Below the pieces are notes generated by a model that did no database searches, was not told where the DNA came from, and worked only from the letters and a program-made list of their open reading frames with translations. The translations under genes were made by a program, and so were the position numbers. Of a stretch of DNA of 64,000 nucleotides, positions 31,968-60,077 are shown piece after piece; position 1 is the stretch's first letter; every line of letters starts with the position of its first letter. Source of the stretch: Patescibacteria group bacterium (GTDB lineage: Bacteria; Patescibacteriota; Patescibacteriia; UBA9934; GWF2-40-263); NCBI GenBank assembly GCA_041661745.1, contig JBAZTR010000001.1:186471-250470 (forward strand), in the 5' to 3' direction.

Positions 31968-32462
31968 GCCCTCACCCCCTTTCCCCCTCCCCCGTATACA
32001 AAACAAAAGATTATACGAAGGAGGGGGAGTAAAACTATTTAATTAATTTTTTTATTTTTTCTAGAACTAAATTCAAATCTTCAAAAATTTCTTTATTAGT
32101 AAATCTAACCACCTTATACCCAAATCCTTCTAATCGTTCTGTTCTCTCGGCGTCGCCTTCTTTCGAAACGGTCTCGTTATGGATTTCGCCATCTATTTCT
32201 ATTATCAGTCTTTTAGTTCGACAGCAGAAATCGGCGATATAATTTTCGATTCCGTATTGCCTGGAAAATTTTATTCCGAGATTATTGTCTCGCAAGTGTT
32301 CCCATAAAATTTTTTCAGTCTCAGTTTGATTAACTCTAAGAAACTGTCGGGTATTTTTTTGTTTAACTTTATTAACCAAACATTTATTCCGCATAATTCT
32401 TTCCCCTCCTTCGTATGCTTATTGCCTTCCGGCATACGGGGGAGGGGTTAGGGGTGAGGGCC
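31968..32462. mobile_element. MITE-like cassette: DUF559 gene bounded by roughly 65-bp G-rich imperfect terminal inverted repeats
   Basis: The left end is GCCCTCACCCCCTTTCCCCCTCCCCCGTATAC...TATACGAAGGAGGGGGAG. The right end reverse-complements to GGCCCTCACCCCTAACCCCTCCCCCGTATGC...CATACGAAGGAGGGGA. The element exactly fills the tatD-cvpA spacer. Confidence 0.6.
32035..32394 (-). CDS. DUF559 (Vsr/restriction-endonuclease-like fold) protein
   Basis: The 119-aa product has ...ILW..LR.NNLGIKFSRQYGIENYIADFCCRTKRLIIEIDGEIH...R...L...GYKVVRF, typical of DUF559. It is paralogous to 35257..35640. Confidence 0.75.
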   Translation of the reverse strand: MRNKCLVNKVKQKNTRQFLRVNQTETEKILWEHLRDNNLGIKFSRQYGIENYIADFCCRTKRLIIEIDGEIHNETVSKEGDAERTERLEGFGYKVVRFTNKEIFEDLNLVLEKIKKLIK

Positions 32463-32948
32463 TTAAATCCAAGGAATCATCGTCTGGATCGCTGAAGTGA
32501 CAGAATTTATATAAGAAACAACTTGTGAACCGCTAAACCAACCACCGATCAAAGTTGGAAACATGAGTTGTGCAAAATAAACGGCCGCTCCCACCAAAAC
32601 CAAACCTTCAATCAAACCCAAAATTCCACCAAGTAATTTATTTACAAAACCAACAAACGGCAGCCAACGCAGAAAACCAAATAATCTGTCGACAATCCAA
32701 AAAACAAAACCAACCAAACGCTGAGTGACAATAAGAATAAGAATGAAAAGGACAATTCCGGCCACGGTTGTATTGTTGGCAAATAAGAAACCTAGATAAT
32801 CAATCGCTAGCCCGGTATATTGACTGGCAACGATTGCTCCAACAATAAGGCCGACCCCATTACCAAGGATTCGGATAAAACCGAACCACAAGCCGTAAAA
32901 GGCAAAGGCTCCGACAAGGACGAGAAGGATTATGTCGACAAGAGACAT
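32463..32948 (-). CDS. CvpA-family (colicin V production-like) membrane protein
   Basis: 161-aa product with four TM helices. The N-terminus DIILLVLVGAFAFYGLWFGFIR is typical of CvpA. Confidence 0.65.
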   Translation of the reverse strand: MSLVDIILLVLVGAFAFYGLWFGFIRILGNGVGLIVGAIVASQYTGLAIDYLGFLFANNTTVAGIVLFILILIVTQRLVGFVFWIVDRLFGFLRWLPFVGFVNKLLGGILGLIEGLVLVGAAVYFAQLMFPTLIGGWFSGSQVVSYINSVTSAIQTMIPWI

Positions 32949-32957
32949 ATTTTAGGC

Positions 32958-33035
32958 TCAAGTATGTAGTGGGTAGTATGTAGGCAAAAGTTCTAATTAG
33001 AACTCCTGCCTACCTACTACATACTACCTACTAAA
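32958..33035. repeat. family-1 heptad repeats as an inverted pair without cargo (about 75-nt hairpin) between cvpA and metG
   Basis: AGTATGTAGTGGGTAGTATGTAGGCAAAAG, then a palindromic spacer GTTCTAATTAGAAC, then CTCCTGCCTACCTACTACATACTACCTACT. Confidence 0.7.
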
Positions 33036-33037
33036 AG

Positions 33038-34546
33038 CTAATTATTTTTAGGAAAAAGCGGCTCGCCTTTGGCGATTTTGTGGCCCGGAGTCAGTTCACC
33101 CCACACCCAAGCTGATTCAAACGATTGATTAAATTCTTTCGGGGCTTCAAGACCGAGTTGAACAAAAAGTTTCTCGGCTGTCTCGGGCATAAATGGAACC
33201 AACATCCAAGCAATGTGGCGCAGGGTTTCGAGCAAAACGTAAAGGGTGTCGTTCAACATTTTCTTTTCCTCCATTTTGGCCAACTGCCACGGTTGTTGTT
33301 GCTCAACAAATTGATTGGCTTGACGAATCAAATTCCAAATAATATCCAAGGCATCACTCAAACGATTTTCTTCAAGAGCTAAATGGTAGGCTTGCCATGC
33401 CCCGGCAAGAAACCCGTCAGCTTTTTCCGGAACAACACCGTCGGTGTATTTCTCAGTCATGGCCAGAACGCGATTTACCAAGTTGCCAAATTCGTTGGCT
33501 AACTCGTTATCATAACGGGCCACCAAACGGCTTTCCGAAAAATCACCATCCCCACCAAACGGAATTTCACGAAAAAGAAAATAACGAAGGACGTCGTTGC
33601 CGTATTTTTGGGTCATTTCAATTGGGTCAACAACATTACCAATGGACTTAGACATTTTTTGTCCATCAATAGTGAAAAAACCATGAGCAAAAACCTGCTT
33701 GGGCAATGGTAAACCGGCTGACATTAACATGGCCGGCCACAAGGCACAGTGAAATTTAATAATATCTTTACCAACCAAATGCAAATCAACCGGCCACCAT
33801 TTTTCAAAAGCCGTCGGATCATCAGCATAACCCACGCCGGAAAGATAATTGATCAGGGCATCGAACCAAACGTAAATGCGATGTTTTTCATCGCCAGGCA
33901 CGGAAATGCCCCACTCCACGGTTTCGCGAGAAATGGAAATATCCGTCATGAAGTTACGAATATAACTCAAGACTTCGTTCCGTTTGGCCTCGGGCTGAAT
34001 AAAATCAGGATGTTCACCAATGTAAGCCAACAAATCATCACGATATTTTGTTAAACGGAAAAAATAATTATTTTCTTTCAGAGCTGTTGGAGCTTTTTGA
34101 TGATCGGGACACAAACCGTTAACCAAATCAGTTTCATTTTTAAAAGCCTCACAGCCTTGGCAATACAAACCTTCATAAGAACCAAGATAAATATCACCTT
34201 TGGCTTCGACGGCTTTCCAAAACTTTTCCACGGACTGGTGATGAACTTTTTCCGTGGTGCGGATAAAACGATTATGCGTTAAACCCAACGAATCAAAAGT
34301 TCGCTCCCACAACGCCGCCATTTCGTCCAAATAACCTTGAACATCGGCGGCGCGACCAACCTTGGCCGCGGCCTCAACGTTTTTTTGGCTGTTTTCATCA
34401 GTGCCGGTTTGAAACATTACTTCCTCGCCCAGCATGCGGTGATAACGGGCCAAAATATCCGCGGCAATTGCCGTGTAAGCGTGGCCAATCGACGGCTTAC
34501 CGTTGATGTAATAAATCGGGGTGGTTATGTAAAACTTTTTGGGCAT
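33038..34546 (-). CDS. metG: methionine--tRNA ligase
   Basis: The 502-aa product has the HIGH motif PSIGHAYT, KMSKS, and the zinc knuckle CPDH...CQGC. Confidence 0.95.
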   Translation of the reverse strand: MPKKFYITTPIYYINGKPSIGHAYTAIAADILARYHRMLGEEVMFQTGTDENSQKNVEAAAKVGRAADVQGYLDEMAALWERTFDSLGLTHNRFIRTTEKVHHQSVEKFWKAVEAKGDIYLGSYEGLYCQGCEAFKNETDLVNGLCPDHQKAPTALKENNYFFRLTKYRDDLLAYIGEHPDFIQPEAKRNEVLSYIRNFMTDISISRETVEWGISVPGDEKHRIYVWFDALINYLSGVGYADDPTAFEKWWPVDLHLVGKDIIKFHCALWPAMLMSAGLPLPKQVFAHGFFTIDGQKMSKSIGNVVDPIEMTQKYGNDVLRYFLFREIPFGGDGDFSESRLVARYDNELANEFGNLVNRVLAMTEKYTDGVVPEKADGFLAGAWQAYHLALEENRLSDALDIIWNLIRQANQFVEQQQPWQLAKMEEKKMLNDTLYVLLETLRHIAWMLVPFMPETAEKLFVQLGLEAPKEFNQSFESAWVWGELTPGHKIAKGEPLFPKNN

Positions 34547-35205: not shown

Positions 35206-35725
35206 AGATTCCCTCTCCCCTTACCCTCCCCCGTCGTGGCAACGAGGGAGGGAGAATTATTTAAGATAAGTTTTAATTTTAATTAAAATTTTCTGCGGAT
35301 CTTCCAATACTTCTTGGTTTTTAAACCTAATAATCTTGTAGCCAAGTCTTTCTAAATTTTCTGTTCTCTCTCGATCACTTACTTTTGCTTCATAGCAATT
35401 GTGGATGTCTCCGTCTATCTCAATGATTAACTTCTTACTCCGGCAACAGAAATCGGCTATATAATTTTCTATTCCGTGCTGCCTAACAAATCTTATTCCA
35501 AGTTCGTTTCTTCGCAAATGTTGCCATAATACTGTTTCGGCATCAGTTTGGTTTTTCCGTAAAAACTGTCTGGTTACTTTTTGTTTTAGTTTATTGACTA
35601 AATGTTTTTCGAACATAACAAATAGTTCTTCCTCCCTCACTGCCGCAGTGGGGGAGGATTACCCGCCTTCGCCAAGGCTACGGCGGGTCCTCCGTAGCTT
35701 TAGCGAAGGAGGAGAGGAGAGGGCC
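35206..35725. mobile_element. second MITE-like DUF559 cassette with G-rich terminal inverted repeats
   Basis: The left end CCCTCTCCCCTTACCCTCCCCCGTCGTGGCAACGAGGGAGGGAG and the right end ...GGGGGAGG...GAAGGAGGAGAGGAGAGGGCC match the ends of the 31968-32462 element. It exactly fills the rsmI-DUF3179 spacer. Confidence 0.55.
35257..35640 (-). CDS. DUF559 (Vsr-like endonuclease fold) protein, second copy
   Basis: The 127-aa product has ...VLWQHLRRNELGIRFVRQHGIENYIADFCCRSKKLIIEIDGDIH...LGYKIIRF. Confidence 0.75.
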   Translation of the reverse strand: MREEELFVMFEKHLVNKLKQKVTRQFLRKNQTDAETVLWQHLRRNELGIRFVRQHGIENYIADFCCRSKKLIIEIDGDIHNCYEAKVSDRERTENLERLGYKIIRFKNQEVLEDPQKILIKIKTYLK

Positions 35726-36610
35726 TCAATGATTAGCCGCCCAACAAAACCAATAAGCCGTGGTCAGGGCCACTTCGTTTTCGTTCTTGTCATATCCTTT
35801 CACAGTTTCCAATTCCTCATCCCAAACAAAATCAACTTCCGTGCCACTAATAGTTTTGGCACTTTTAATATTATCTAGCGGAAAAACCTCCGAACCGTAA
35901 CTGTAGACAATGGTTTTGGCCGGATAACTCGAATCGTATTTATTCAACGGATACCAAACCGCCGGCGTGGCTGCGTAATTGCCGTATGGATTATGCGAAT
36001 AATCGCGAGCTGAACCGGTTTCGCGCGACAACACATAACCATTGGGAAAATTTTCTTTGAACGATTGCCAGGTCATGACATAAGAAGGAATGGCCGAAAG
36101 GTTATCGCCGGTCTCGGGAAGAGTTTGACCGTCAAACGAACGCCAAAGTAAATCTGTTTCTTCGGCCGTAAACAACATGGAGTTGTTATAAATTTTTCCG
36201 GAATTTTTAAAAAGCCTTTCGCTTTCGAAAACGGCCGCACTGCCACACAACGGATCATAAGAAACTAAAATCGACGAACCGTTCCAAACATCATTAACCA
36301 AATTGTGCCAAACCAAAATCTGAAAAGGATAAAACCTCGCCTGTCCCCTGCCCCCTATCCCCTCCAAAACAAGACCAAGCCCTTCATTTAACAAATAAGT
36401 GTCGGCCAACGGAACTGATTCGAAATCAGAATCATTAAGAGCAGGACGCGAGTCGTTGTCTGAACCTGTATCTATTATCGAATCTTCCAATCCTGGCTGA
36501 ACCAGATTTCGTGGCGGCAAGTGATTAAAATACTCAAAAACAAAAAAGCCGACAAAAATCGCTAAAATAACAAAAATGATCAATTTTCTCTTGTTTAAGA
36601 ATTCCTTCAC
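35726..36610 (-). CDS. hypothetical protein (DUF3179-like?), N-terminal TM
   Basis: 294-aa product. The family assignment is by vague recollection only. An internal G-tract encodes GIGGRGQARF. Confidence 0.4.
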   Translation of the reverse strand: MKEFLNKRKLIIFVILAIFVGFFVFEYFNHLPPRNLVQPGLEDSIIDTGSDNDSRPALNDSDFESVPLADTYLLNEGLGLVLEGIGGRGQARFYPFQILVWHNLVNDVWNGSSILVSYDPLCGSAAVFESERLFKNSGKIYNNSMLFTAEETDLLWRSFDGQTLPETGDNLSAIPSYVMTWQSFKENFPNGYVLSRETGSARDYSHNPYGNYAATPAVWYPLNKYDSSYPAKTIVYSYGSEVFPLDNIKSAKTISGTEVDFVWDEELETVKGYDKNENEVALTTAYWFCWAANH

Positions 36611-36617
36611 ACAAAAA

Positions 36618-36671
36618 TAGAATATCAGAAAAAAATAATACCGGCCACCTGGGGTTGAACCAGATGGCCGG
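36618..36671 (-). terminator. rho-independent terminator of the high-GC IPT/TIG gene
   Basis: On the minus strand CCGGCCATCTGGTTCAACCCCAGGTGGCCGG forms a hairpin, followed by TATTATTTTTTTTCT. Confidence 0.65.
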
Positions 36672-36680
36672 AGAGGTGCC

Positions 36681-37757
36681 CTAGCGGTGGCCGGGGGCGG
36701 CGACGATCCCGTTGATCGGAGCGGGCGGAGCGAGTCCCTCCTCGATCGAGTTGGCCACCATAGTAAGTCTGCCGGCGATCAAGGCAGCAGCCAGGAGGAT
36801 CGCCAGGACCACGCTCCCGATGACCGCCGGAACCACCCACGGCTTCATGGGGGCCGGCGGGACGGCCGGGGCAGGAGGCTCGGGCGGCGGGGGCGGCTTG
36901 GCCATGTGCGGCGTCAGCTGGTCGACCACCTCCTTAACGGCCTTGCCGACCATCTCGCCATTCCGGATCATCAGGTCGCCGACGATCTTCGGATCAACGC
37001 CGGGCGGGATCGCGATGACCGGAGCGGCGACTCGCGAGGCCGAGCCCGCGGGCGGGGTCGAGCTGCGCGGAGGAGGCGACGGCGGCGGGGCGGCGACCTT
37101 GGTCTTGAACGTGAAGGCGTCCGCCAGGAAGACGGACTCGCCACCGTTGTTCTTGACCTCGACGCTCGCCACTCCGACCGGGAAGGCGGGAGTCTTGGCC
37201 AGGATCTTGGTGTCGGACACGAACCGGATGTCCGTGCCGACGACCTTGGTCGCGGGCGTGAAGAAGAACACCTGGCAGTCGGCCGTGAAGCCGCTGCCGG
37301 TCACCTCGACCTCGAGGCCACCAGTCTCCTCGCCCTCGGTGGGCGTGATGGAGGTGACGGCGAGAACGGGAGGCGGTGGGGGCGGAGGCGGCGGTGGGCT
37401 GCTGATCGCGACGACCCAGCCGACCGCTCGGGCGTGGGCGAGCGCCCGATCCTTGAAGTCGGGCCGCCAGTCCCGGATGGCCTCGAGCTCGGTCATGATC
37501 TCGGCCTCGGAGCGGTTGGCCGAAGCCACGACCAGCTCCTCGACCTTGCAGATGATGTCGATGACCGTGGTGTCATCGTTGCCCAGCGCGGCCGCTTTCG
37601 TGAACTTGTCCGCGACATCGACCGAGACGTTGTCCCACTCGGTGAACTTCCAGGCCATGAGCGAGCTGAAGTCGCCGGCCGGGCTGGGGGCAGACCAGAT
37701 GGCCACGGCCGCATGGAACGCGGCCTGCTGTTCTGGGGTGAGGGTAGTGATGTCCAT
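36681..37757 (-). CDS. high-GC surface-type protein with an IPT/TIG-like Ig domain, poly-Pro linkers and a C-terminal TM anchor
   Basis: The 358-aa product has PPPPPPPPPP; an Ig-like segment VTSITPTEGEETGGLEVEVTGSGF...VFFF...IRFVSDTKILAKTP...VEVKNNGG..SV..D.FTF; and a C-terminal hydrophobic stretch AVIGSVVLAILLAAALIAG. GGAGA lies before the ATG. The long + strand ORFs here are Arg-rich antisense artefacts. Confidence 0.6.
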   Translation of the reverse strand: MDITTLTPEQQAAFHAAVAIWSAPSPAGDFSSLMAWKFTEWDNVSVDVADKFTKAAALGNDDTTVIDIICKVEELVVASANRSEAEIMTELEAIRDWRPDFKDRALAHARAVGWVVAISSPPPPPPPPPPVLAVTSITPTEGEETGGLEVEVTGSGFTADCQVFFFTPATKVVGTDIRFVSDTKILAKTPAFPVGVASVEVKNNGGESVFLADAFTFKTKVAAPPPSPPPRSSTPPAGSASRVAAPVIAIPPGVDPKIVGDLMIRNGEMVGKAVKEVVDQLTPHMAKPPPPPEPPAPAVPPAPMKPWVVPAVIGSVVLAILLAAALIAGRLTMVANSIEEGLAPPAPINGIVAAPGHR

Positions 37758-37908
37758 GGTATCTCCGGGGTCAGGGAGGGTGGGAGAAGGTGCATCAAAC
37801 AGCCGAAAAACCGGCCGAATGAACAGAGAAAAATATCACATTTTCCAAAAAAAGTCAAGAATCTTATCAAAAACAAAAATTTATCAAAAAAAGAATTTCC
37901 TTCTAATC

Positions 37909-37938
37909 TTGACAAAAACCAAAAAATGGGCTATTTTA
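37909..37938 (+). promoter_or_regulatory. sigma70-like promoter (TTGACA, 17 nt spacer, TATTTT) in the AT-rich divergent spacer, driving the 38065 gene
   Basis: cTTGACAaaaaccaaaaaatgggcTATTTTact. A strong SD GGGAGGA lies 6 nt before the ATG at 38065. Confidence 0.45.
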
Positions 37939-38064
37939 CTTAGCTCGAATTGAGCACAAGGTAGTTAGCTCCCTAAACAATTCACCCAATTCGTTCGTAA
38001 GTTTTTTTGTCGTAATTCTTCGCCAGAACGCTGAACACACCCGAACCCCGAAAGGGAGGACAAA

Positions 38065-39222
38065 ATGAGCGAGATCAACATCCTGGATCTCTGGGCAGCA
38101 ACCGGCATCATGGAGGCGCTCCTGCCCCTGATCCGAGAGGTCGACAAAAGGTTCGTCCCCGAGGACCACAACCTGACCTACAACCAGGTCGAGTGGAGCC
38201 GTCACGGCGACGGATGCATCGGAAGCATCATGCTCGTCGACGAGGACGGCAAGGATCAGGAGATCGCCTGCTACCCGATCTCGACCAGGTGGAACGTGGA
38301 CATCACCACCCCCCACATGGTACTGGCCTTCCAGGTCACCAGAAGCAACAACGAACCCGAAACCGAGGACGACCTGAGCGACGGTCGCTGGTACGCCATT
38401 CCGGTCGGTCTGGCACCAACCTCGATCCGGACCAAAGTCGAGAGGGCCTTCCAGGAAGTCGGCCTCCTCAACGGTCGTCTCCCCGGCCTCAAGCCGCACG
38501 AGTGGGACGACTCTCCGGAACGCCGGTTCAACCTGGTCTTCCAGCGCCGGCGCGGCGACATGATCGCCTGGTACCAGGGGAAGGTCTGCGTCCTGGTCGA
38601 AGGTTCGCCAATCCCCAAGCCCGGCAAGGAGGTCATCTGCGAAGTGGTGACCGAGCGCCTGAGCAAGGTCGTCGTCCGCTGGACGGGCATGACCGTCGAG
38701 CAGGCCAGGAAGAGGATCGACGAACAGCGACGCCTGGCCGGTCTCCGAAGCAGCATCCGCCGGGCCGCGCGCGTGGAGCGACCCGAGCTCAAGGATCCCG
38801 TGGCCGCCATGGGGCTCGAGCCGGACAAGCTGAGCGGCGGACGCCTCAACAGCGCCTACCGCCGGCTGCGCCAGCAGGTCCCGACGACCGAGGAGGAGGC
38901 CGGCGCCAACCCGCTGGCCAAGGCCATGGTCGAAGTCGGCCTGCCCTTCCAGGCCGACAACCTAGACTGGCCGGTGTTCTACGCCGAGTACCTCGACCGG
39001 GCCGACCGGGCCGCGGTCCAGGTCCTCAAGGACAAGCGCACGAAGGAGCGCGAGGAGGCCGAACGCACGGCCACCCCGCCGCCCGTCGAGCCCGCCACCG
39101 AAGGCGAGGGCCACGAGGAAGCGGTCGCCGACCTCGACACCGCCGACGAAGACCTCCTGGTCGAGGAGTCGACCGACGACGGCTCCGCCCAGCCCCGCGA
39201 GGAGGGCGCGAACGCGAAGTAG
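38065..39222 (+). CDS. high-GC hypothetical protein (385 aa, acidic C-terminal tail)
   Basis: A long ORF with a strong RBS and its own promoter and terminator. No motif recognised. The C-terminus is Glu/Asp-rich. Confidence 0.55.
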   Translation: MSEINILDLWAATGIMEALLPLIREVDKRFVPEDHNLTYNQVEWSRHGDGCIGSIMLVDEDGKDQEIACYPISTRWNVDITTPHMVLAFQVTRSNNEPETEDDLSDGRWYAIPVGLAPTSIRTKVERAFQEVGLLNGRLPGLKPHEWDDSPERRFNLVFQRRRGDMIAWYQGKVCVLVEGSPIPKPGKEVICEVVTERLSKVVVRWTGMTVEQARKRIDEQRRLAGLRSSIRRAARVERPELKDPVAAMGLEPDKLSGGRLNSAYRRLRQQVPTTEEEAGANPLAKAMVEVGLPFQADNLDWPVFYAEYLDRADRAAVQVLKDKRTKEREEAERTATPPPVEPATEGEGHEEAVADLDTADEDLLVEESTDDGSAQPREEGANAK

Positions 39223-39254
39223 ACGGACTTCCCCGTCAACTTCACGTCCCACAC

Positions 39255-39293
39255 GGCCGCTGTGCACCTAGTGCATGGCGGCCTTTTTCTTTT
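39255..39293 (+). terminator. rho-independent terminator (GGCCGC..GCGGCC hairpin plus TTTTTCTTTT)
   Basis: A GC hairpin lies 33 nt after the 39222 stop, followed by a T-run. Confidence 0.6.
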
Positions 39294-39363
39294 ACAAAAA
39301 TTTATGACTATCGACCGTGACTGTGGTATAATATTTAAAACAAAAGAAAATAAAAAAACTTTT

Positions 39364-40143
39364 ATGTCTATTTATCCAAATTGGAAAGGCGAAAGAGTGT
39401 ACGCTATCGCCGTTTTCGTACTCATTGTGAGCGCGATTATTTATCTCGGCGTAAAAATTGACAACATTGTCCGACAATCAAAAGAAGTCGGTCAACCCAC
39501 GCCCTATGAACATACAATCATGATTGAAGGCGAAGGCACGGTTACTGGTAAGCCAGATATTGCCACTTTTGTCATGGGCACGGAAAGCCATGGGGTCGAT
39601 GCGGCCGCGGCACAAACCGCCAATAGCACCATCATGAATAAAATTATTGAAGATACTAAGGGCTTAGGAATTTCTGAAGACGATATTCAAACTTCCGGCT
39701 ACAATATTTACGAAGATCTTCAATGGAATTCGGACACTGGTGATTATGATTCAAAAGGATGGATCGTTTCCAACTATGTCACGGTTAAAGTCCGCGATGT
39801 TTCCAAACTTTCAACCGTCTTAGCTATGGCCGGTCAAAATGGCATTACTGATATTTCCGGTCCAACTTTCACAATTGATGACACCACTAATTTAAAGGCC
39901 GAGGCCAGAACCGAAGCTATTCAACAAGCGCAAACCAAAGCGCAAGCTATTGCCACAGCCCTTGGTATGAGAATTGAAAAAGTTGTTGGTTACAGCGAAT
40001 GGTCCCCTTCGATTTATGACTACTCATATGCTTATGGTATGGGTGGGTCAGACGAAAAATTAAGTTCAGCCATGCCATCTATCGAGGCCGGTTCAACCGA
40101 AGTTTCACTAACCGTTTCCATCACTTACAAATTGGCCGAATAA
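39364..40143 (+). CDS. SIMPL/DUF541 domain protein (26 kDa periplasmic immunogenic protein-like)
   Basis: The product has an N-terminal TM, then IEGEGTVTGKPDIATF...GWIVSNYVTVKV...GPTF.IDD....AR.EAI..A..KA in the SIMPL pattern. The start was moved to MSIYPNW. The ORF track's earlier start lies in the high-GC terminator. Confidence 0.65.
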   Translation: MSIYPNWKGERVYAIAVFVLIVSAIIYLGVKIDNIVRQSKEVGQPTPYEHTIMIEGEGTVTGKPDIATFVMGTESHGVDAAAAQTANSTIMNKIIEDTKGLGISEDDIQTSGYNIYEDLQWNSDTGDYDSKGWIVSNYVTVKVRDVSKLSTVLAMAGQNGITDISGPTFTIDDTTNLKAEARTEAIQQAQTKAQAIATALGMRIEKVVGYSEWSPSIYDYSYAYGMGGSDEKLSSAMPSIEAGSTEVSLTVSITYKLAE

Positions 40144-44822: not shown

Positions 44823-46027
44823 TGGAGAAACCCATGCCCACGGAACGTATCGAACAAGCCCTGGCCTATTGGGAAGACATCTGCGTGCTGGAACGTCATC
44901 TGGCCATGCTAGAGGCCTTGCGTAAAAAGAAAAAATTCGAGCCCAAAGGGCCACTCAAGTACCTCGGATTCAGACAGGTCCTTGAAGAAGGCCTGGGGTG
45001 GAGCTTCGAATTCCTCTACGAGGGTGACCGAAAATCGTTGCAGGCAATGAAGCTGCTTCCGTTGATGATCTACGCCTGGATGTACTCATCCAAACGTGTC
45101 TTCCGAATGTCGTCTAAAACGATCGACGAACTGCTTCGCGAAGACCATCGACCGCCACCGTGCACCTGGGGAGAATTCCCCTGGCCGTTCGAGGCCTTCG
45201 TCGTGTCGTTCGAAACACCGCTACACCTACGACCAGAAGCCGATGGGTCTTACGACACCCTGATTGTCGTGAGTATCGTGCGCGATGGACACATGACTCT
45301 GTTGCTGCAGTGGTTGCCGGTTTTTCTCACCGAGTATCAACCGCTGACAGGCAAGGAGACGAGCGAAATGCTCATCGATCTTGGCGAAGAGGTTCGCCGA
45401 GGTCGCGAAGAGGTTCGCCAGGCCGGCGATGCAATCTTGGCCAAACTGCCCCGCAAAGTGCGTCGCCTACTAAAACGACAAAACCTGACGGCCGCCGCCG
45501 AGAAAACGGTCGGGTATACGGACGAAGAAATCGATCAATTGATAAACAACGACAAAGAGTACCTCCATTTGATCAGCTTTCCGGCCTTCCTGATTGATCG
45601 GGGCCTCTTCAGCGTAATCGGAGATCTGAACGAAAAGATAAGCGAAGGACCGCTTATGCGGCTCATCTATTCCTTCTGCAATCTCATCGCCAACGGAACA
45701 CGCGTAACTGAGGTTGTCGGAAGATCGAAACATCCAAAGACCGGCTCGTCGCGTAGCAACGACTTCACCGACGGGGCAAATATCTTCGAAGTCGGCTCGC
45801 AAACTGAATTCGCAAGTGGTGTGCGAACCAGGCATGCCTCCGACGAGCCGTCGGGTCGTACGGTGCGTCCGCACCCGCGACGCGGCTTTTACCGTCGCCC
45901 GCACGGCAGTGACCTCGAAGCGCCCAAGTCTGAGTGGGTAAACTCCACGTGGATCCACAGAGACGAAGCCACAAACAGGGGTCTACTCCCTGTATGCGAA
46001 ATCGTCGTGGATACGTCCAAGACTTGA
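44823..46027 (+). CDS. high-GC hypothetical protein (about 400 aa)
   Basis: A long ORF in a 60%+ GC segment that begins abruptly about 70 nt after typA. The precise start is uncertain. No motif recognised. Confidence 0.5.
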
Positions 46028-46037
46028 CCCTACCCTA

Positions 46038-46100
46038 CCCAGTCCGCCAAGACTGGGATTTTTTTATAAACAAAAAACAACCCTCCACGAAGGAAAGTTA
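46038..46100 (+). repeat. direct repeat A: terminator module CCCAGTC-CGCCAA-GACTGGG plus T7, then AAACAAAAAACAACCCTCCACGAAGGA(A/G)AGTT
   Basis: The 62 nt are identical to 47139-47201 except 1 nt. The first hairpin with its U-run looks like an intrinsic terminator. Confidence 0.75.
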
Positions 46101-46188
46101 TCTTTGATGACTCAATTGACGGTTTGTTTTAAAACATTTATACTCGATCAGCCGTAGAATTAAACGGCAAACAAAGAGAGGCTCCTTC

Positions 46189-46443
46189 ATGAAGATCAAA
46201 CGGTTCTTGTTGGGAGGGCTCGTCTTCCTCTGCATCCCCTTCCTCGCGGGCATCGACTGCAAGAAGCGGCTCGACTGCGCCGAAGAACACGTGGCCTGCG
46301 ACCAGCGCTGTGCCGAGGCGGCCAGCACCACCGGTCAGAACATCGTCACCACCTACTTCTACTGCAACGAGTTCACCGGCGATGTCGTCTGCGAGTGCGG
46401 GCTCGGCCTGGACTACGGCAGCTTCGAAACCTGTGAAGGCTAG
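46189..46443 (+). CDS. small secreted cysteine-rich peptide (signal peptide plus 8 Cys), high GC
   Basis: MKIKRFLLGGLVFLCIPFLAGIDC... has a lipobox-like LAGIDC. The mature part has 8 Cys in about 60 aa. AGAGAGG lies before the ATG. Confidence 0.55.
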   Translation: MKIKRFLLGGLVFLCIPFLAGIDCKKRLDCAEEHVACDQRCAEAASTTGQNIVTTYFYCNEFTGDVVCECGLGLDYGSFETCEG

Positions 46444-46457
46444 GAGGAAGAACCACC

Positions 46458-47087
46458 ATGCTCATGCTTCTCGCCATCACCATCAGTGCCCTCGCGGGTA
46501 CCTACCACGTGAACTTCCCGATCGTCAGCGGAGCTCCGACCAATCCGCTCGATGACGTCTTCGTCCTCACGGTCTCGGCGTGGGACCTCGACCAGAACCA
46601 GCAGAACGGGATCTACGACTCGAGCTGGCGCTTCATCAAGTGCGAGGCCAAGGACGGCGACCTCTACGTCCACTTCACCGGGAAGAAGACGGACTGGCCG
46701 ACCAGCTGGCCCCAGCAGGTCACCTGCTCGGGCTATGGCAACACCCTGGTCGTACACCCGGTGTCTCCGAGTGTGTACGAGCCGAGCATGATCGAGATCA
46801 CCGGCGACGACGAGATCTACTTCACGATGGCCACGGGGATCACCAAGCTCCGGACCATCAAGATCCCGGACGGCGACTACGACGTCGAGAGCTGCTTCGC
46901 GGCCCACGACGACAACGACGATCTGTGGAGCGGCGTCACCTGTGACCCGATCGCGAGCGACGACGACAACTTCGTGCGCGTCTACATCACCGGCGATGCG
47001 GCCGCGGGAACCGGAACCTGCGTCATCCCGGGGTTCAACAACACCCCGGACCTGACCATCACCATCAACCTCGACGGGCGTCCCTAG
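46458..47087 (+). CDS. secreted hypothetical protein, high GC, immediately after the Cys-rich peptide
   Basis: The 209-aa product has an N-terminal hydrophobic signal MLMLLAITISALAG. It starts 14 nt after the previous gene behind GGAGGA. No motif recognised. Confidence 0.5.
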   Translation: MLMLLAITISALAGTYHVNFPIVSGAPTNPLDDVFVLTVSAWDLDQNQQNGIYDSSWRFIKCEAKDGDLYVHFTGKKTDWPTSWPQQVTCSGYGNTLVVHPVSPSVYEPSMIEITGDDEIYFTMATGITKLRTIKIPDGDYDVESCFAAHDDNDDLWSGVTCDPIASDDDNFVRVYITGDAAAGTGTCVIPGFNNTPDLTITINLDGRP

Positions 47088-47138
47088 GTAGCCCCTCACC
47101 TCCTCACGCTACACATCGCAAGACGGTGTAGCGCTGAG

Positions 47139-47201
47139 CCCCCAGTCCGCCAAGACTGGGATTTTTTTATAAACAAAAAACAACCCTCCACGAAGGAGAG
47201 T
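47139..47201 (+). repeat. direct repeat B (copy of the terminator module at 46038-46100)
   Basis: See repeat A. Further hairpins follow (GCCAGTTTAACTGGC, AGAAAAAGCTTAGCTTTTTCT) and a 12-bp inverted repeat CACCAAGCTGAG/CTCAGCTTGGTG ends at the tRNA. Confidence 0.75.
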
Positions 47202-47320
47202 TGTTTTTAGTGAGCCAGTTTAACTGGCTTCACCAAGCTGAGTCTGAATTTTATTCTAGGTGCACCAGAGAAAAAGCTTAGCTTTTTCTCTTACAACAGA
47301 ATAAGAAACCAAGCTCAGCT

Positions 47321-47395
47321 TGGTGACCCCACCGGGAATCGAACCCGGATTTGCGCCGTGAGAGGGCGCCGTCCTAACCGTTAGACGATAGGGCC
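47321..47395 (-). tRNA. tRNA-Glu (anticodon CUC), CCA encoded
   Basis: The minus strand reads GGCCCTA-TC-GTCT-AACGGTTA-GGAC-G-GCGCC-CTCTCAC-GGCGC-AAAT-CCGGG-TTCGATT-CCCGG-TGGGGTC-A-CCA. The cloverleaf is complete, with U33, A37 and a canonical T-loop. Confidence 0.85.
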
Positions 47396-47709: not shown

Positions 47710-47824
47710 GTTTTGACGCTGACTAAGATAACACAAAAAAAGTTTTTTGTCGAGGATTGACACAAAGCCAATTTTGTTATATTTTCATTTGTCGACACTT
47801 TTCCTCTCCAACCTGGAGGTATCG

Positions 47825-48100
47825 ATGAATCGCCACAAGTTTCTGGTCACAAGTGCACTCTTGGGGTCTCTGGCCGGCATCTCGTGGTTCGCGATGCTGG
47901 TCACAGCACCCGTGTCCATAGTTCTGCTCGTCTCCTCCACTCAGCTCATCGAGAAGTACCTGGGCGAGTGGTGGTCCTGCACCATCCTGCCCTTCGCCCT
48001 CGTGTACCTCGCGTACAACATCGTGATCGGGGGAACGGCCGCCTTCTGCTACCGGCGCTACATGCGACACACCCGCAGTGCCAATGCGGTCGCCTCCTAG
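47825..48100 (+). CDS. small high-GC membrane protein (two or three TM helices)
   Basis: MNRHKFLVTSALLGSLAGISWFAMLVTAPVSIVLLV... follows GGAGGT 6 nt upstream. The ORF track starts at 47747. Confidence 0.5.
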   Translation: MNRHKFLVTSALLGSLAGISWFAMLVTAPVSIVLLVSSTQLIEKYLGEWWSCTILPFALVYLAYNIVIGGTAAFCYRRYMRHTRSANAVAS

Positions 48101-48254: not shown

Positions 48255-49676
48255 TTGTCACAAAAGCACATCCTCACGCCATGGAATGTGCTGGTGGCAA
48301 TCATCGGTTCATTCCTTGGGTCAATCGCGTTGGTAAGCATTAACTCCGACATCGGATCTGATGCGGAAAAAATTGGCAGCTCGGCCTGGTTCATCATGCA
48401 AGGCATGCTGCCATACAAGGAGATCATCGAAGTTAACCAGCCCGGAACACTTTTATACCTGATGGGGCTCAAGTCGATTAGCCAATCAGACATGTGTTTC
48501 CGTCTGGCAGATCTGCTGATGCTTGCGATAATTGTAGGTCTACTGTGGCGTCTCGGCAAAACAACTGGGACCTTCGCCGCCGCGCCGGCCGTGTTCTATT
48601 CCGGGTTTCATCTAATCATGCTCGGACACAACGGCACTGTGCAGCGCGATGCAGTTATTACCGCGTTTGTGCTTGGTGCTGCAGTACTGGTCGTACAATG
48701 GGAAAAAGAACACCAGGACTGGCAACTCGCCGTGGCTGGGTTACTTATTGGCTGTGCCTCGACCATCAAGGTTGACGCTGTCCTGTTTGCTATACCCCTC
48801 GGCACCCTCGTACTGAAAAACGAGTGGCGTAAGCTGTCCCTTCCAATCGACGGCGCAATTCTACCGTTGATGGCCGTTGTTTTCTGGGTGGACTACTACG
48901 ATGCTCTCCCGGATCTGTGGTGGGTCATGACAACATTGATCCCCATAGCTAACGGCCCGGAGACGTACGGCCTCATGCCACAAATCCCCATCTGGATGCG
49001 CTTCGTGGTGACGATCGTCGCGGTGGTAATTTCCAGTGCCGCCGTCTATCGAAACCCGGGTCGTAATCTCATGTGGGCAATGACCATTATGGGTGCCCTG
49101 CACTTGATTGTGCAAAATAAGGGTTTCTGGTACCACTTCCTGCCAATCTTGGCTTTCGGCAGTGTGGCCATCATGCAGATGAAAAAACCAACGCGTTACC
49201 CTGTTGCCGTCGCGCTGGTTTGCACGTGGCCACTCATGTGGTTCATTCCGGACGATCAACAGAGCACGACGCATTCGGACGTTATTCCTGTCGAAACCGC
49301 GCTTCGGAACCTACCAACCGAGGCAAGAATACAACCTCTCACCTACGTGGACTCGGTGTCAGGCGCCATGGTCAAGGCTGGGCGACTGCCGGCAACTGGC
49401 ATGGTGTACGACCTGTTCCTTTTCATGGGGAAAGATACCCCGGCAAGGAACGAAATACGTCACCGTTTCCTCACGGATGTACAAAACGATCCGCCAGACT
49501 ACTTTGTCACAAGTCGCGACAGCGACCCAAGGGGCTTTGACAAACTGTTGGCCTGGCCGGAATTCAAGACTTGGCTTGAACAAAACTACATCATCGAAAT
49601 CGACAACGGCGTCTATCGGATCTACTGTTACAAATTCGCCAACAACCTAGTTTCTTCACGTACTTCCACCCCCTGA
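48255..49676 (+). CDS. high-GC polytopic membrane protein, possibly a GT-C-fold glycosyltransferase (DUF2029/PMT-like)
   Basis: The 473-aa product has 10 or more hydrophobic helices. The family call is a guess from overall architecture only. Confidence 0.4.
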   Translation: MSQKHILTPWNVLVAIIGSFLGSIALVSINSDIGSDAEKIGSSAWFIMQGMLPYKEIIEVNQPGTLLYLMGLKSISQSDMCFRLADLLMLAIIVGLLWRLGKTTGTFAAAPAVFYSGFHLIMLGHNGTVQRDAVITAFVLGAAVLVVQWEKEHQDWQLAVAGLLIGCASTIKVDAVLFAIPLGTLVLKNEWRKLSLPIDGAILPLMAVVFWVDYYDALPDLWWVMTTLIPIANGPETYGLMPQIPIWMRFVVTIVAVVISSAAVYRNPGRNLMWAMTIMGALHLIVQNKGFWYHFLPILAFGSVAIMQMKKPTRYPVAVALVCTWPLMWFIPDDQQSTTHSDVIPVETALRNLPTEARIQPLTYVDSVSGAMVKAGRLPATGMVYDLFLFMGKDTPARNEIRHRFLTDVQNDPPDYFVTSRDSDPRGFDKLLAWPEFKTWLEQNYIIEIDNGVYRIYCYKFANNLVSSRTSTP

Positions 49677-49753: not shown

Positions 49754-50140
49754 CTATTTCGTAAAGTAACCGGCATTTACTCGTTTGCCGGCTTCGGTGA
49801 GGGAAAACGTGAAGAAAAAGGAACTATCTTTTTTATAAGGCGGATGGCCGATGATCCCGACGTTCTCGATCAGCCCATCATCGATCATCTTCCCAATCCA
49901 AAACTTGAACGGAATGACCCAGTGGAAACGGTCGGCGTCAGCGGCCATCATCTGCTGAATGGTCATGGGCTTATCGGCAGCTTCCAGAATACCGAGGATG
50001 ATCGACCTAGCCCAGCGGTAACGCCACAGTGTCCAGTAGTAGGCACAGTGGAAAAGGACGAAGACCGTAACGACCACGGACACGCAACCGCACAAAAAAA
50101 CCACAAACGTGCTGGATAAATCCATGAGTACCTCCGACAA
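49754..50140 (-). CDS. hypothetical small membrane protein
   Basis: 128-aa product with an N-terminal TM FVVFLCGCVSVVVTVFVLF. Confidence 0.35.
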   Translation of the reverse strand: MSEVLMDLSSTFVVFLCGCVSVVVTVFVLFHCAYYWTLWRYRWARSIILGILEAADKPMTIQQMMAADADRFHWVIPFKFWIGKMIDDGLIENVGIIGHPPYKKDSSFFFTFSLTEAGKRVNAGYFTK

Positions 50141-55246: not shown

Positions 55247-55257
55247 ATTTATTTTAG

Positions 55258-55326
55258 GTTAGTAGTATGTAGTATGTAGTGGGTAGGCAATAGATTTAAT
55301 CGGGAACTTTTGCCTACATACTACCT
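55258..55326. repeat. family-1 heptad repeats as an inverted pair without cargo
   Basis: AGTAGTATGTAGTATGTAGTGGGTAGGCAA, then a spacer, then TTGCCTACATACTACCTACTAC. Confidence 0.7.
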
Positions 55327-55327
55327 A

Positions 55328-56668
55328 CTACAAACTCGAACCAATCAATCCTCGGCCACGAACCACACGATGATATTTTACCGCAAAACGATGGGCTTCG
55401 TCACGGGCTCGTTGAAAAACCTCTTTACCCATGGCTGCCAGGCGTGCCAGTTCGCGATCATTAACATTATAAACCAACCGATCTTGTTTGCGATCAAAAC
55501 CCTTGGCAATACCGATCAGTGGTGTTTTCACCCCGGCCTCGCGCAAAACGCGAGCCACGCGATTTATCTGTCCTTCCCCACCGTCGATAATAAAGACTTC
55601 CGGCAAGGGCCATTCAGTATGTTTAAGACGACGACGCAGCACTTCCTCCAACATTGCCACGTCATTGGCACCTTTAACGCTTTTAATTTTAAATTTGCGA
55701 TAAAGATTCTTGGCCGGCTCGCCTGATTCAAAAACCACCATCGAGCCAACGGACGAAGTGCCGGAAATATTGCTGATATCGTAGGCCTCAAGGCGACCCA
55801 TCAAATCCAACCCTTCCTTTTCTGTTTTGGTTAGCGGCAAGGCAAAATCTTCGCGGGAAATCACGGCTACATCCTGAATGTGTTCCAGAGCGAAAATTTT
55901 GTTGCGTAATTTGGCAGCCGCCTCAAATTTCATTTCCTTGGACAACTGCTTCATGTCTTTTTTCATTTGGCTGACCAGACGCGATTTTTTCCCTTCAAAA
56001 AACAAAATCAACTGTTTAACGATGTTGTGATAATCTTTTTTAGAAATAGCCCCGGAACAAACGCCCGGACAACGGCCGATATGAACGTTAAAGCATGGTT
56101 TACTTCGACCAGTAACGGCTGGCGGCTGGCAATCGCTCCACTGAATAATTTTGCGAATCAAATCAAGGGCCTTGCGTAATGAAGCGCCGCTGGTGTACGG
56201 ACCAAAAACCGCCAAAAATTGTTTTTTGGCTTTTGGTGAAAGGGTGCGGCTAAACGGATTGATACCAAAACGTTCCAGTTCCAAACCACGATACAAAATC
56301 GGCCTGGGAAAATCTTCGTTGGTAATAGTAAGGTAAAGAAAACTTTTGTCATCGCGCTCCAAAATATTGTATTTGGGCCGGCGGGCTTTAATTTGGTTGG
56401 CTTCCAAAACCAGAGCTTCGATTACTGTTGGTGTCTCCGAATAATCAATTCTGGCGATTTGCGCCACCATTTCGGCAATCCGACGATCATGGGCTTTTGT
56501 AAAATACGAGCCAACGCGCTTTTTAAGCGAGGTGGCCTTGCCAACGTACATCAAAACTCCGGCCGTGTTGTAAAAGAAGTACACGCCCGGCGAATCAGGC
56601 AGCGCCTTGTTTTTAATTTTAATTTTTTTCGGGATCATATCTTTATTTGATTCTTCCACGCTTGACAA
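55328..56668 (-). CDS. uvrC: excinuclease ABC subunit C (short form)
   Basis: The product has the N-terminal GIY-YIG PGVYFFYN...LMYVGKATSLKKRV, a UvrBC-interaction region, and a C-terminal RNase-H-like/HhH domain. Confidence 0.85.
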   Translation of the reverse strand: MSSVEESNKDMIPKKIKIKNKALPDSPGVYFFYNTAGVLMYVGKATSLKKRVGSYFTKAHDRRIAEMVAQIARIDYSETPTVIEALVLEANQIKARRPKYNILERDDKSFLYLTITNEDFPRPILYRGLELERFGINPFSRTLSPKAKKQFLAVFGPYTSGASLRKALDLIRKIIQWSDCQPPAVTGRSKPCFNVHIGRCPGVCSGAISKKDYHNIVKQLILFFEGKKSRLVSQMKKDMKQLSKEMKFEAAAKLRNKIFALEHIQDVAVISREDFALPLTKTEKEGLDLMGRLEAYDISNISGTSSVGSMVVFESGEPAKNLYRKFKIKSVKGANDVAMLEEVLRRRLKHTEWPLPEVFIIDGGEGQINRVARVLREAGVKTPLIGIAKGFDRKQDRLVYNVNDRELARLAAMGKEVFQRARDEAHRFAVKYHRVVRGRGLIGSSL

Positions 56669-59992: not shown

Positions 59993-60077
59993 TAGGACAC
60001 TAGGAGGGTAGGAGACTAGGAAGCTAGGCAGATGTAAGTTCAAGACTAGTTTCCTAGCCTCCTAGTTTCCTAGCCTC
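59993..60077. repeat. family-2 heptad repeats (CTAGGAGG/CTAGGAAACTAG) as an inverted pair; the right arm encodes the last 7 codons of uvrB
   Basis: CTAGGAGGGTAGGAGACTAGGAAGCTAGGCAG ... ACTAGTTTCCTAGCCTCCTAGTTTCCTAGCCTCC. The UvrB C-terminus KEARKLGG is read from the repeat. Confidence 0.65.

Follow-up and report, generated by a model that had tools for sequence, protein, structure and literature searches.

The divergent gene pair analyzed here (island B) is probably a hyper-divergent module that is inherited vertically and actively kept GC-rich in its transcribed part. It lies in a 64,000-nucleotide stretch of DNA, the whole of which is called the window below. The pair would represent a self-contained, lineage-specific accessory module of Uhrbacteria-like Patescibacteria, situated between a DUF3179 and a SIMPL gene and comprising two divergent sigma-70-type promoters, a leader hairpin, two coding sequences (three elsewhere) and two intrinsic terminators. 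Such a module would travel with the chromosome by inheritance rather than by fresh import, and its elevated GC content, limited to the transcribed and coding part, would be upheld against the AT-biased substitution regime of the genome. We observed that the module occurs as a unit, at a shared locus in three lineages and with conserved non-coding signals; that the GC content of the spacer tracks the host while that of the coding sequences does not; that synonymous divergence is similar to that of the flanks; and that our searches returned no outside donor.

Composition, signals and products of the gene pair

The features of island B are as follows.

36641-36671, minus strand: TIG-gene intrinsic terminator (stem of 12 bp, 9 of them GC pairs, then TATTATTTTT)
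36681-37757, minus strand: partner gene, 358 aa, TIG-domain protein (Pfam PF01833)
37795-37822, minus strand: leader hairpin of the partner (TIG) gene, a conserved 5' leader (GUUCAUUC-RGCCR-loop-YGGCUG-UUUGAU)
37830-37858, minus strand: partner-gene promoter (TTGACT-17-TATTTT, with TG upstream)
37909-37937, plus strand: promoter of the 385-aa gene (TTGACA-17-TATTTT)
38065-39222, plus strand: gene of the 385-aa protein, a new small family (GC 0.67, GC3 0.89)
39255-39283, plus strand: 385-aa-gene intrinsic terminator (stem of 13 bp, 9 of them GC pairs, then TTTTTCTTTT)

We computed the composition of both genes and compared it with that of the 39 host-like genes of the window. The GC content was 0.688 (GC3 0.889) for the partner gene and 0.671 (GC3 0.894) for the 385-aa gene, compared with 0.440 ± 0.024 (GC3 0.410 ± 0.045, maximum 0.52) for the host-like genes, a difference of z ~10. 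In a 100-nt profile, GC rises from 0.29-0.31 at 36500-36650 to 0.62-0.82 over 36650-37750, drops to 0.25-0.29 in the spacer (37800-37950), returns to 0.56-0.77 over 38050-39250 and falls to 0.28 by 39300, and no strong GC skew is present at island B. As a mean over 17 such genes, high GC begins ~60 nt 5' of the start codon and stops at the terminator stem. The third codon positions of the island genes contain C, G, A and T at 0.55, 0.34, 0.055 and 0.06, respectively (T is 0.36 in host genes), and GC1 and GC2 are likewise elevated; this codon usage resembles a high-GC mutational regime, unlike translational optimization. A preliminary description of this DNA had reported a pair at ~65% GC beside neighbors at ~42%, separated by an AT-rich spacer. 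The measured values (0.69 and 0.67 versus 0.44, with a dip to 0.25 between the genes) agree with both statements, and the profile and codon usage show a real jump in composition rather than uniform GC. Long antisense ORFs, such as 36687-37943 on the plus strand (418 aa), which was picked by the gene caller of one assembly, were rejected as GC-rich shadow ORFs because GC1 exceeds GC3 there and because the TIG match and the conserved homologues lie on the opposite strand.

Six promoter-like sites were found where 0.5 were expected. The –35 box of the partner-gene promoter (GTCAAG on the plus strand) is invariant in four of four genomes, and the block CTTGACAAAAnCGAAAAAATGnGCTAnTTTA at the promoter of the 385-aa gene is kept in the same proportion (4/4). 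The leader hairpin has nine predicted pairs, one of them compensatory (GC/GU/AU) among the three genomes compared; a comparison of the spacer with Rfam, this hairpin included, returned no known RNA motif (E ≤ 1). In the closest relative (L018), the terminator and junction region at 36610-36684 is 83-85% identical to positions 8563-8633, and the 3' UTR motif CCGTCAACT and hairpin of the 385-aa gene are kept. Both divergent promoters, the leader hairpin and the terminator regions are thus conserved in relatives together with the coding sequences, including in one genome that carries the module at another locus, which indicates that they are not the host's own signals. The earlier description was right about the TTGACA-17-TATTTT promoter (37909-37937, plus strand) and about strong Shine-Dalgarno sequences, which are visible as GGGAGG and GGAGA. 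Its terminator hairpins exist at both gene ends, but are not of the 'AT-style' proposed, since each stem has 9 GC pairs; and its view of the promoters as resident conflicts with their conservation with the module across genomes and loci.

The partner protein begins with a conserved helical N-domain (~1-115), followed by a Pro run and an IPT/TIG domain (134-216); beyond this lie a Pro-rich linker, a helix and, C-terminally, a membrane helix. Residues 134-216 match PF01833 at 38.7 bits (gathering cutoff 20.9, E 1e-9), whereas the helical N-domain, the Pro-rich linkers and the tail anchor belong to no described family. The hydrophobic C-terminal helix (~305-330) is visible in the sequence and also appears, at 308-340, in a single-sequence structure model (pLDDT 48). 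These results bear out the earlier account of a Pro-rich, C-terminally anchored IPT/TIG protein. The architecture is identical in L018, and the N-domain shares 40-60% identity with those of L005/L018 and L010 and 29% with that of L008. In L008 and L010 two separate proteins take the place of the partner: one consists of the N-domain, and the other has a beta-rich domain (Ig-like by eye), a Pro-rich part and a membrane helix. Since the N-terminus, judged by eye, carries no apparent signal peptide and the only membrane helix is C-terminal, most of the TIG protein may face the cytoplasm, and the label 'surface or secreted' given to the island products is uncertain.

For the 385-aa protein, N-terminal helices, two beta-barrel regions (~37-113 and ~154-210) and a long helix are predicted, followed by a J-like helical segment and a disordered acidic tail (residues 342-385, pLDDT <50), the latter in line with the 'acidic-tailed' protein described before. 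The HPD motif between helices II and III, our criterion for a J-domain (DnaJ), is absent from the J-like segment. A membrane-tethered Ig-like protein might conceivably act with a soluble protein having putative OB/S1-like domains, as a first guess at the function of the module.

Relatives, shared locus and age of the module

A word-indexed search of 5.8 billion protein clusters returned only self-matches for both island B proteins and for the protein encoded at 150-557. By a full HMMER search of 1.84 billion representatives, we detected four relatives of the 385-aa protein, all of them GC-rich. Source name or synteny places two of them among Uhrbacteria-type Patescibacteria, the genome context of a third is AT-rich and like that of the window, and the fourth (L009) is on a 1.4-kb contig without context. 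The family is new and very rare (five clusters among 15 billion proteins) and is carried by only four or five lineages, all metagenome-assembled. A literature search turned up no description of a GC-rich gene class in Uhrbacteria or CPR.

The gene order CvpA-MetRS-RsmI-like-DUF3179-module-SIMPL is common to the window, L018 and L008. Identity to the window is 94% for BipA, 91% for MetRS and 80% for SIMPL in L018, and 75% for MetRS and 49% for SIMPL in L008. The module proteins of the window and L018 are only 40-41% identical, compared with 66-94% for the flanking proteins. However, the site is empty in L004, although this genome is nearer to the window than L008; vertical inheritance therefore requires one loss, unless the site is a hotspot at which insertions recur. 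The L010 copy lies elsewhere, beside tRNA-Asp and accompanied by a duplicated tRNA fragment; the module must therefore have moved at least once. Between strains L006 and L010, 29 unpolarized substitutions lie in 1.1 kb within the module and none in the 9.5 kb alongside, and this restriction to the module points to recombination at the locus.

A fixed site, conserved flanks and highly divergent alleles also characterize replacement or flexible genomic islands, for which O-antigen and surface-protein loci, hypervariable but fixed in chromosomal position, are examples. Island B resembles them in its site amid core genes, extreme allele divergence (40% versus 80-94% identity), local strain variation and membrane-associated product. 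It differs in that its synonymous divergence is no greater than that of the flanks, in that its coding sequences diverge next to conserved regulatory DNA, and in being strongly GC-rich. Two other known arrangements were rejected. A diversity-generating retroelement target does not fit, as no template/variable repeat pair was found in the window and no reverse-transcriptase domain among the called neighbors; an integron-type promoterless cassette does not fit either, as each gene has its own conserved promoter, no border repeat occurs at island B and no integrase lies nearby.

We compared rates between the window and L018 codon-wise; global nucleotide identity of the coding sequences is uninformative (over-gapping). 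The flanking genes showed dS values of 0.96-1.87, near synonymous saturation, and dN values of 0.04-0.18, compared with a dS of 0.77-1.19 and a dN of 0.55-0.57 for the module, with NG86 dS being unreliable near saturation and under strong codon bias. The module dN is 4-10 times that of its neighbors. The residual synonymous signal was 0.10-0.13 for the module and 0.15-0.29 for the flanks, and module alleles showed no excess synonymous divergence over the flanks, which is a weak test near saturation. Since both dS and the residual signal are close to the flank values, the module is about as old as its flanks, with an omega of ~0.5-0.7.

Across genomes, module GC3 was 0.75-0.85 in L018, 0.89 in the window, 0.72-0.91 in L010 and 0.86-0.96 in L008, whereas host GC3 was ~0.2-0.33, 0.41, 0.4 and 0.65, respectively. 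For the spacer, GC content was 0.38 at the L018 locus (L005 copy) and 0.55 in L008, with the dip to 0.25 in the window; unlike coding composition, spacer composition therefore tracks each host. Under a two-state decay model starting at a GC3 of 0.95, values of 0.56-0.73 in the window and 0.42-0.64 in L018 would be expected, well below the observed 0.89 and 0.75-0.85. GC-richness has thus outlasted that expected of a recently transferred gene, and something appears to keep these genes GC-rich. This persistence beyond synonymous saturation supports an idea that the preliminary description had offered second, namely that a mechanism maintains the composition of these genes.

Alternative origins

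The same compositional class occurs elsewhere in the window.

150-557, plus strand: response-regulator-receiver-like orphan (GC3 0.78), with its own TTGACA-17-TAAATT promoter
44834-46027: island gene (GC3 0.64)
46038-47220, plus strand: unit of two GC-rich genes bracketed by an 80-bp direct repeat (90% identical)
46189-46443, plus strand: 84-aa Cys-rich protein (GC3 0.88)
46458-47087, plus strand: 209-aa protein (GC3 0.92)
47321-47395, minus strand: tRNA-Glu(CTC), adjoining the unit at 46038-47220
47747-48100: island gene (GC3 0.78)
48255-49676: island gene (GC3 0.63)
49754-50140, minus strand: island gene (GC3 0.67)
56727-57440: island gene (GC3 0.56)
62309-62602 and 62726-63238, plus strand: paralogues, 59% identical (GC3 0.87 and 0.91), each with a TTGAC-type promoter and a terminator

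All islands listed in the earlier description proved real, with corrected gene coordinates (a start at 44823 is out of frame). A precomputed 'AcrVA2-like (faint)' label on 44834-46027 was not reproduced by Pfam at E <0.1. Codon usage is similar in all islands, and those other than island B, which may be of horizontal origin, have no counterpart in the closest relative; the ones downstream of BipA are absent from L018. This class makes up ~13% of the window, and the effect is therefore not marginal for the organism.

It is rather unlikely that island B is a mobile cassette that includes its promoters. Its home would be an unsampled GC-rich reservoir (a virus, a plasmid or a GC-rich relative), from which it would time and again be re-delivered to a hotspot between DUF3179 and SIMPL and to sites beside tRNA genes, and its GC content would reflect that reservoir. 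Such an origin would accommodate accessory, orphan genes, the empty site in L004, the L010 copy beside tRNA-Asp with its duplicated tRNA fragment, the direct repeat beside tRNA-Glu around another island, the lack of the islands downstream of BipA in L018, the codon usage shared by all islands and a strain-level replacement seemingly restricted to the module. However, no reservoir was found in 15 billion proteins and no relatives in 2.9 million viral contigs; IMG/VR protein and motif scans for the module, tblastn against phage and plasmid records, and PHROGs and PADLOC likewise gave no match. Island B itself (36400-39500) has no flanking repeats, att sites or border repeats, and no integrase occurs among its neighboring genes. 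Moreover, spacer composition follows each host, the non-coding parts and synonymous sites are about as diverged as the flanks, and coding GC is 0.71-0.73 even in a host with 54% GC.

Island B resembles acquired genomic islands in its composition and codon usage, which are atypical for the host, in its accessory orphan genes and in its absence from one close relative (L004; it occupies the shared site in L018 and L008). It differs in being GC-richer rather than AT-richer than the host, in having no integrase, flanking repeats or identifiable donor, and in composition shifts that coincide with transcription-unit boundaries and leave host-like spacers inside. In the model of Lawrence and Ochman, a horizontally acquired island is said to ameliorate with time, whereas island B is not ameliorated despite synonymous saturation.

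Could a resident module instead be kept GC-rich by GC-biased gene conversion, in which frequent recombination at a hypervariable locus and GC-biased mismatch repair would fix AT-to-GC changes, with dN/dS inflated as a consequence? We consider this improbable. Fast protein evolution together with GC enrichment at all three codon positions is its classic signature, the L006/L010 tract over the module with identity alongside would suit it, and Vsr-like DUF559 genes lie nearby. Recombining bacterial genes reportedly have higher GC3 (Lassalle et al. 2015), and island B likewise combines raised GC3 with apparent recombination and fast evolution. Nevertheless, the sharp boundaries match transcription units, adjacent core genes remain at background GC, and poorly conserved spacer positions are still AT-rich. 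The effect, a GC3 offset of +0.3 to +0.55, is several-fold larger than that of bacterial biased conversion, for which reported effects lie far below this value; it is also confined to transcription units and leaves the core genes beside them unaffected. The tract itself comes from a single strain pair and is perhaps due to chance or to a mixed-strain consensus. The vls antigenic-variation locus of Borrelia is also GC-rich in an AT-rich genome and, like island B, encodes a variable membrane-associated protein; island B differs in having no silent cassettes or paralogous copies, no strong GC skew and unrelated proteins.

The preliminary description had proposed that a high-GC donor, plausibly an actinobacterial host, repeatedly supplied coding sequences that came to lie behind resident AT-rich promoters. 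GC3 and codon usage do resemble those of high-GC bacteria, and Patescibacteria are thought to be naturally competent. We nevertheless judge this origin very improbable for island B. The three island proteins searched have no actinobacterial or other outside homologues, none of the closest homologues was placed in a compositionally matching donor lineage, and those of island B, as far as they can be placed, are only of CPR type and likewise GC-rich. Furthermore, promoters and leader are kept alongside the coding sequences in other genomes, also where the module lies at a different locus, and the module has stayed at the same locus past synonymous saturation. Abrupt composition shifts are the usual warning sign of an assembly or binning chimera, but island B and both junctions are 100% identical in three independent assemblies (one from ENA and two from Logan) and at least 10 further assemblies of relatives have this structure too, so that the chance of a chimera is negligible.

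Proposed maintenance of GC-richness and its implications

For the inherited module, candidate sources of its composition would be selection on coding RNA, biased conversion and an unsampled reservoir. Granting that it is resident and maintained, we tentatively suggest that the maintaining force might be a mutation-selection balance favoring G/C-ending codons and GC-rich, A/U-poor coding RNA. Such selection would act on independently transcribed accessory genes, mostly antisense to core gene arrays, and it might be for coding RNA that resists A/U-targeting RNases, for fewer spurious AT-rich signals or for control of translation through tRNAs. The raised GC1 and GC2 are not predicted by pure codon selection and count against it.

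More generally, we regard it as a realistic prospect, short of probable, that small Patescibacteria genomes contain two stable gene classes: an AT-rich core and a fast-evolving, independently transcribed and mostly antisense accessory set at a GC3 of ~0.8-0.95, held there beyond synonymous saturation by a force delimited by transcription units. Such a force could be a targeted process of repair or conversion with a GC bias, or else selection acting on coding RNA. If so, atypical GC would mark a maintained gene class and not recent transfer.

Atypical composition is routinely taken as a sign of recent transfer, and amelioration as a clock. Here a module at +25 GC points (+0.3 to +0.55 in GC3) has kept this composition at one chromosomal site in lineages with synonymously saturated neighboring genes, and the composition of its spacer has meanwhile moved with each host. 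The conserved promoters and leader hairpin that accompany this new family are open to direct testing. If the explanation is upheld, calling transfer from composition would mislead in Patescibacteria (CPR) genomes, and whole transcription units of these bacteria, tiny as their genomes are, would be subject to an unrecognized selective or repair-based force.

Base composition of island B and the window

We computed GC profiles of the window and found that, over a background of ~0.36–0.49 (500-nt profile), peaks occur at 36.5–39.5 kb (maximum 0.71), 45–47 kb, 48–49.5 kb, 62–63.5 kb and in the first 500 nt. The first of these is island B, a module of two divergent GC-rich genes, for which the 100-nt profile rises from 0.29 to 0.70 over ~100 nt at the left edge (36.6 kb), stays at 0.62–0.82 until 37.75 kb, falls to 0.25–0.29 at 37.80–37.95 kb, and is 0.56–0.77 at 38.05–39.25 kb before reaching 0.28 by 39.3 kb.

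Genes and promoters of island B
36681-37757, minus strand: partner (TIG) gene, 358 aa, GC 0.688, GC3 0.889
37858-37830, minus strand: promoter of the partner gene, TTGACT-17-TATTTT
37909-37937, plus strand: promoter of the 385-aa gene, TTGACA-17-TATTTT
38065-39222, plus strand: 385-aa gene, 385 aa, GC 0.671, GC3 0.894

Relative to host-like genes (n = 39; mean GC 0.440 ± 0.024, GC3 0.410 ± 0.045), both genes have z ~10, and codon usage in the island genes is extreme (TTC 100%, ATC 97%, AAG 90%; third positions C 0.55, G 0.34, A 0.055, T 0.06). The preliminary description of GC-rich coding sequence around an AT-rich spacer was thus borne out by the z values and the 100-nt profile, and the other islands listed there are all real, with some coordinates corrected; genes whose GC3 is 0.55 or higher make up 13% of the window. 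Chimeric assembly was excluded because three independent assemblies give exactly the same sequence (100% identity) for island B and its two junctions. In one public assembly, a 418-aa antisense shadow ORF (36687-37943, plus strand) is annotated instead of the TIG gene, which is called in two Logan assemblies; wrong-strand calls are a risk for GC-rich genes in these genomes.

Averaging across the boundaries of 17 GC-rich genes, taken from four genomes, gave a mean GC of 0.42 at positions –120 to –61, 0.52 at –60 to –1 and 0.59–0.67 within coding sequence. The 40 nt that follow the stop codon, where the terminator stem lies, average 0.62, and the DNA further out 0.40. This profile indicates that the GC-rich state belongs to the transcript body, not to a broad chromosomal region. 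In the window, no GC-rich gene lacks a near-consensus TTGAC-type promoter sequence, or a hairpin and T-run, of its own. The plus strand carries ten of the 12 genes whose GC3 is 0.55 or higher, and the minus strand 46 of 48 host-like genes (Fisher P = 5e-8), and cumulative GC skew declines steadily over the whole window; relative to the core gene arrays, most GC-rich genes are therefore antisense and may be head-on. Further elements of the window are listed below.

Other islands and repeats
1767-1817, 2166-2201, 3946-3969, 32948-33041, 55251-55345: intergenic REP-like palindromes (GTAGTAGGTAGTATGTAGGCAAAA and complement)
1812-2162: small ORF between one REP-like pair, 41–54% identical to two ORFs of the related contig L018; by eye it resembles four-helix-bundle proteins of 23S rRNA intervening sequences
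2201-3940 and 3982-5718: tandem paralogous genes, ~579 aa each
15737-18244, minus strand: 835-aa ORF with 9-nt-period and 113-nt tandem repeats at 16384-16924, where the plus strand is strongly C-rich
46038-46117 and 47141-47220: 80-bp direct repeat, 90% identical (terminator hairpin, T7, ~50 nt), enclosing GC-rich genes 46189-46443 (84-aa Cys-rich protein) and 46458-47087
47321-47395, minus strand: tRNA-Glu(CTC), adjoining the 80-bp repeat; its anticodon CUC reads GAG, the codon preferred by island genes
62309-62602 and 62726-63238: tandem GC-rich paralogues, 59% identical, with common leader motif GTCCGCRAATACCT; the longer has a weak likeness to the RNA polymerase alpha C-terminal domain (NCBIfam E 5e-4, far below cutoff)
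60044-60080 and 63350-63394: intergenic CCTAGCCTCCTAGTTTCCTAG-type short repeats, either side of the UvrB gene and the 62.3-63.2 kb island

Relatives, chromosomal site and regulatory DNA

A 5.8-billion-cluster search with the 385-aa, TIG and 150-557 response-regulator-like proteins returned self-matches only, and in an exhaustive HMMER search of 1.84 billion representatives the 385-aa protein has no more than four relatives (30–45% identity). For one of these, represented by two near-identical cluster members, the source name is Candidatus Uhrbacteria, and the window's protein comes from a metagenome-assembled genome named 'Patescibacteria group bacterium'; all such names are those supplied by the sources, and the lineages with the module are few and all metagenome-derived. 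No module relatives were found in IMG/VR, phage or plasmid records, PHROGs or PADLOC. Island B is a new, rare gene module, which in its relatives also lies inside a less GC-rich genome wherever host GC is given.

GC content of the module and its hosts
L005/L018 (L018, a 93-kb JGI contig, includes L005): genes 0.61-0.65, spacer 0.38, host ~0.38-0.41
L006/L010 (two strains of a Uhrbacteria relative): genes 0.66-0.72, host ~0.40-0.45
L008 (related genome): genes 0.71-0.73, GC3 0.86-0.96, host ~0.54
L009 (related sequence): gene 0.70

The partner protein comprises a helical N-domain, a TIG domain, Pro-rich linkers and a single C-terminal membrane helix, confirming the IPT/TIG-domain, C-terminally anchored protein first described. 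Since a signal peptide was not apparent in a by-eye reading of the N-terminus, the label 'surface protein' is unproven. Identity in the N-domain (~115 aa) is 40–60% for L005/L018 and L010 and 29% for L008; the remaining part is fused to it in the window and L018, and is a separate GC-rich gene in L008 and L010.

Gene order in L018 is that of the window (CvpA-MetRS-RsmI-like-DUF559-DUF3179-[module]-SIMPL-GlpK-GpsA-Trx-BipA), with protein identities of 94% for BipA, 91% for MetRS, 80% for SIMPL and 66% for DUF3179, and only 40–41% for the module. L008 has CvpA-MetRS-RsmI-like-DUF3179-[three GC-rich genes]-537-aa gene-SIMPL (MetRS 75%, SIMPL 49%, DUF3179 37%, module 31%). In L004 (Candidatus Uhrbacteria; SIMPL 66% identical) the site is empty, DUF3179 and SIMPL being directly divergent across a 60-bp spacer, and in L010 the module lies at another locus, just 3΄ of tRNA-Asp (7214-7291). 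The data are consistent with residence and vertical inheritance of the module, with loss in one lineage and relocation in another.

Beside the relocated module, a 31-nt tRNA-Asp 5΄-end fragment is duplicated (7037-7067 and 7208-7238), 171 bp upstream of the tRNA, and looks like an integration scar. A structured ~150-bp element (core GGGTCCTCCGTAGCTTTAGCGAAGGAGG), resembling a miniature transposable element, flanks the L018 module in direct orientation (~8330-8490 and 11190-11320) and is single-copy in the window (35641-35725, between DUF559 and DUF3179).

Three blocks are invariant in an alignment of four spacers: the 385-aa gene's promoter (CTTGACAAAAnCGAAAAAATGnGCTAnTTTA), the partner gene's –35 box (AAAAAGTCAAG) and a leader segment predicted to fold as a hairpin, one pair of which is compensatory. 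Between the window and L018, identity in the terminator and junction regions is 83–85%, comparable to the flanking core genes (77–85%). The TTGACA-17-TATTTT promoter and both terminators of the preliminary description were found as sequences. Because these blocks, terminators and junctions are conserved together with the module, the promoters are not resident host ones driving captured foreign genes. Spacer GC tracks the host (0.38 in AT-rich L005/L018, 0.55 in L008, down to 0.25 in the window); over the module's time in each lineage, which must have been long, non-coding positions under less constraint have acquired host composition.

Divergence and missing amelioration

In codon-based comparisons of the window with L018, flanking genes (n = 8) gave dS 0.96–1.87 and dN 0.04–0.18, and the module dS 0.77–1.19, dN 0.55–0.57 and omega ~0.5–0.7, although dS values are unreliable near saturation and with strong codon bias. 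The residual synonymous signal (scaled surplus of matching codons at conserved residues above codon-usage expectation) was 0.10–0.13 for the module and 0.15–0.29 for the flanks, and about zero between the window and L010. By both measures, silent sites of the module have diverged to about the same extent as those of the flanks, and they are neither hypermutated nor the product of an ancient split; module proteins evolve 4–10 times faster than flanking proteins.

A two-state relaxation model, with host equilibrium GC3 and flanking dS as inputs and a starting GC3 of 0.95, predicted GC3 of 0.56–0.73 for the window and 0.42–0.64 for L018, compared with observed values of 0.89 and 0.75–0.85. At the L008 split, silent sites are fully saturated, yet module GC3 is 0.86–0.96. 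Simple amelioration is not occurring. The GC-maintaining mechanism initially offered as the alternative is supported.

Proposed maintenance of the GC-rich state

A persistent force would keep the transcribed part of the module GC-rich. We favor mutation-selection balance on coding RNA composition, because boundaries track transcription units, poorly conserved spacer positions are AT-rich and the module's GC3 follows that of the host to a modest degree. Raised GC1 and GC2 and high omega count against this balance, and are classic marks of GC-biased conversion, which may instead maintain the module. Conversion is also favored by a substitution tract confined to the module: L006 and L010 differ by 29 substitutions (26 transitions), all within 1.1 kb (L010 9546-10694); those in the gene comprise 11 non-synonymous and 10 synonymous changes, and there are zero differences over the adjoining 9.5 kb. 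This difference between the strains may be a mixed-strain consensus. Small DUF559 genes (Vsr-like endonuclease fold) lie between core genes (window 32035-32394 and 35257-35640, both minus strand; L018 6966-7325), one ~1 kb left of island B, past the DUF3179 gene; they may bear on GC-biased mismatch repair.

An unsampled GC-rich reservoir may supply islands, especially the other islands, which are without counterparts in L018 and of which one pair is bracketed by the 80-bp direct repeat beside tRNA-Glu(CTC). Capture from a high-GC donor, the main interpretation in the preliminary description, is unsupported, as the cluster and HMMER searches revealed no outside donor. Island B is the opposite of what is expected of a 'compositional island': its high GC has persisted and is confined to transcription units.
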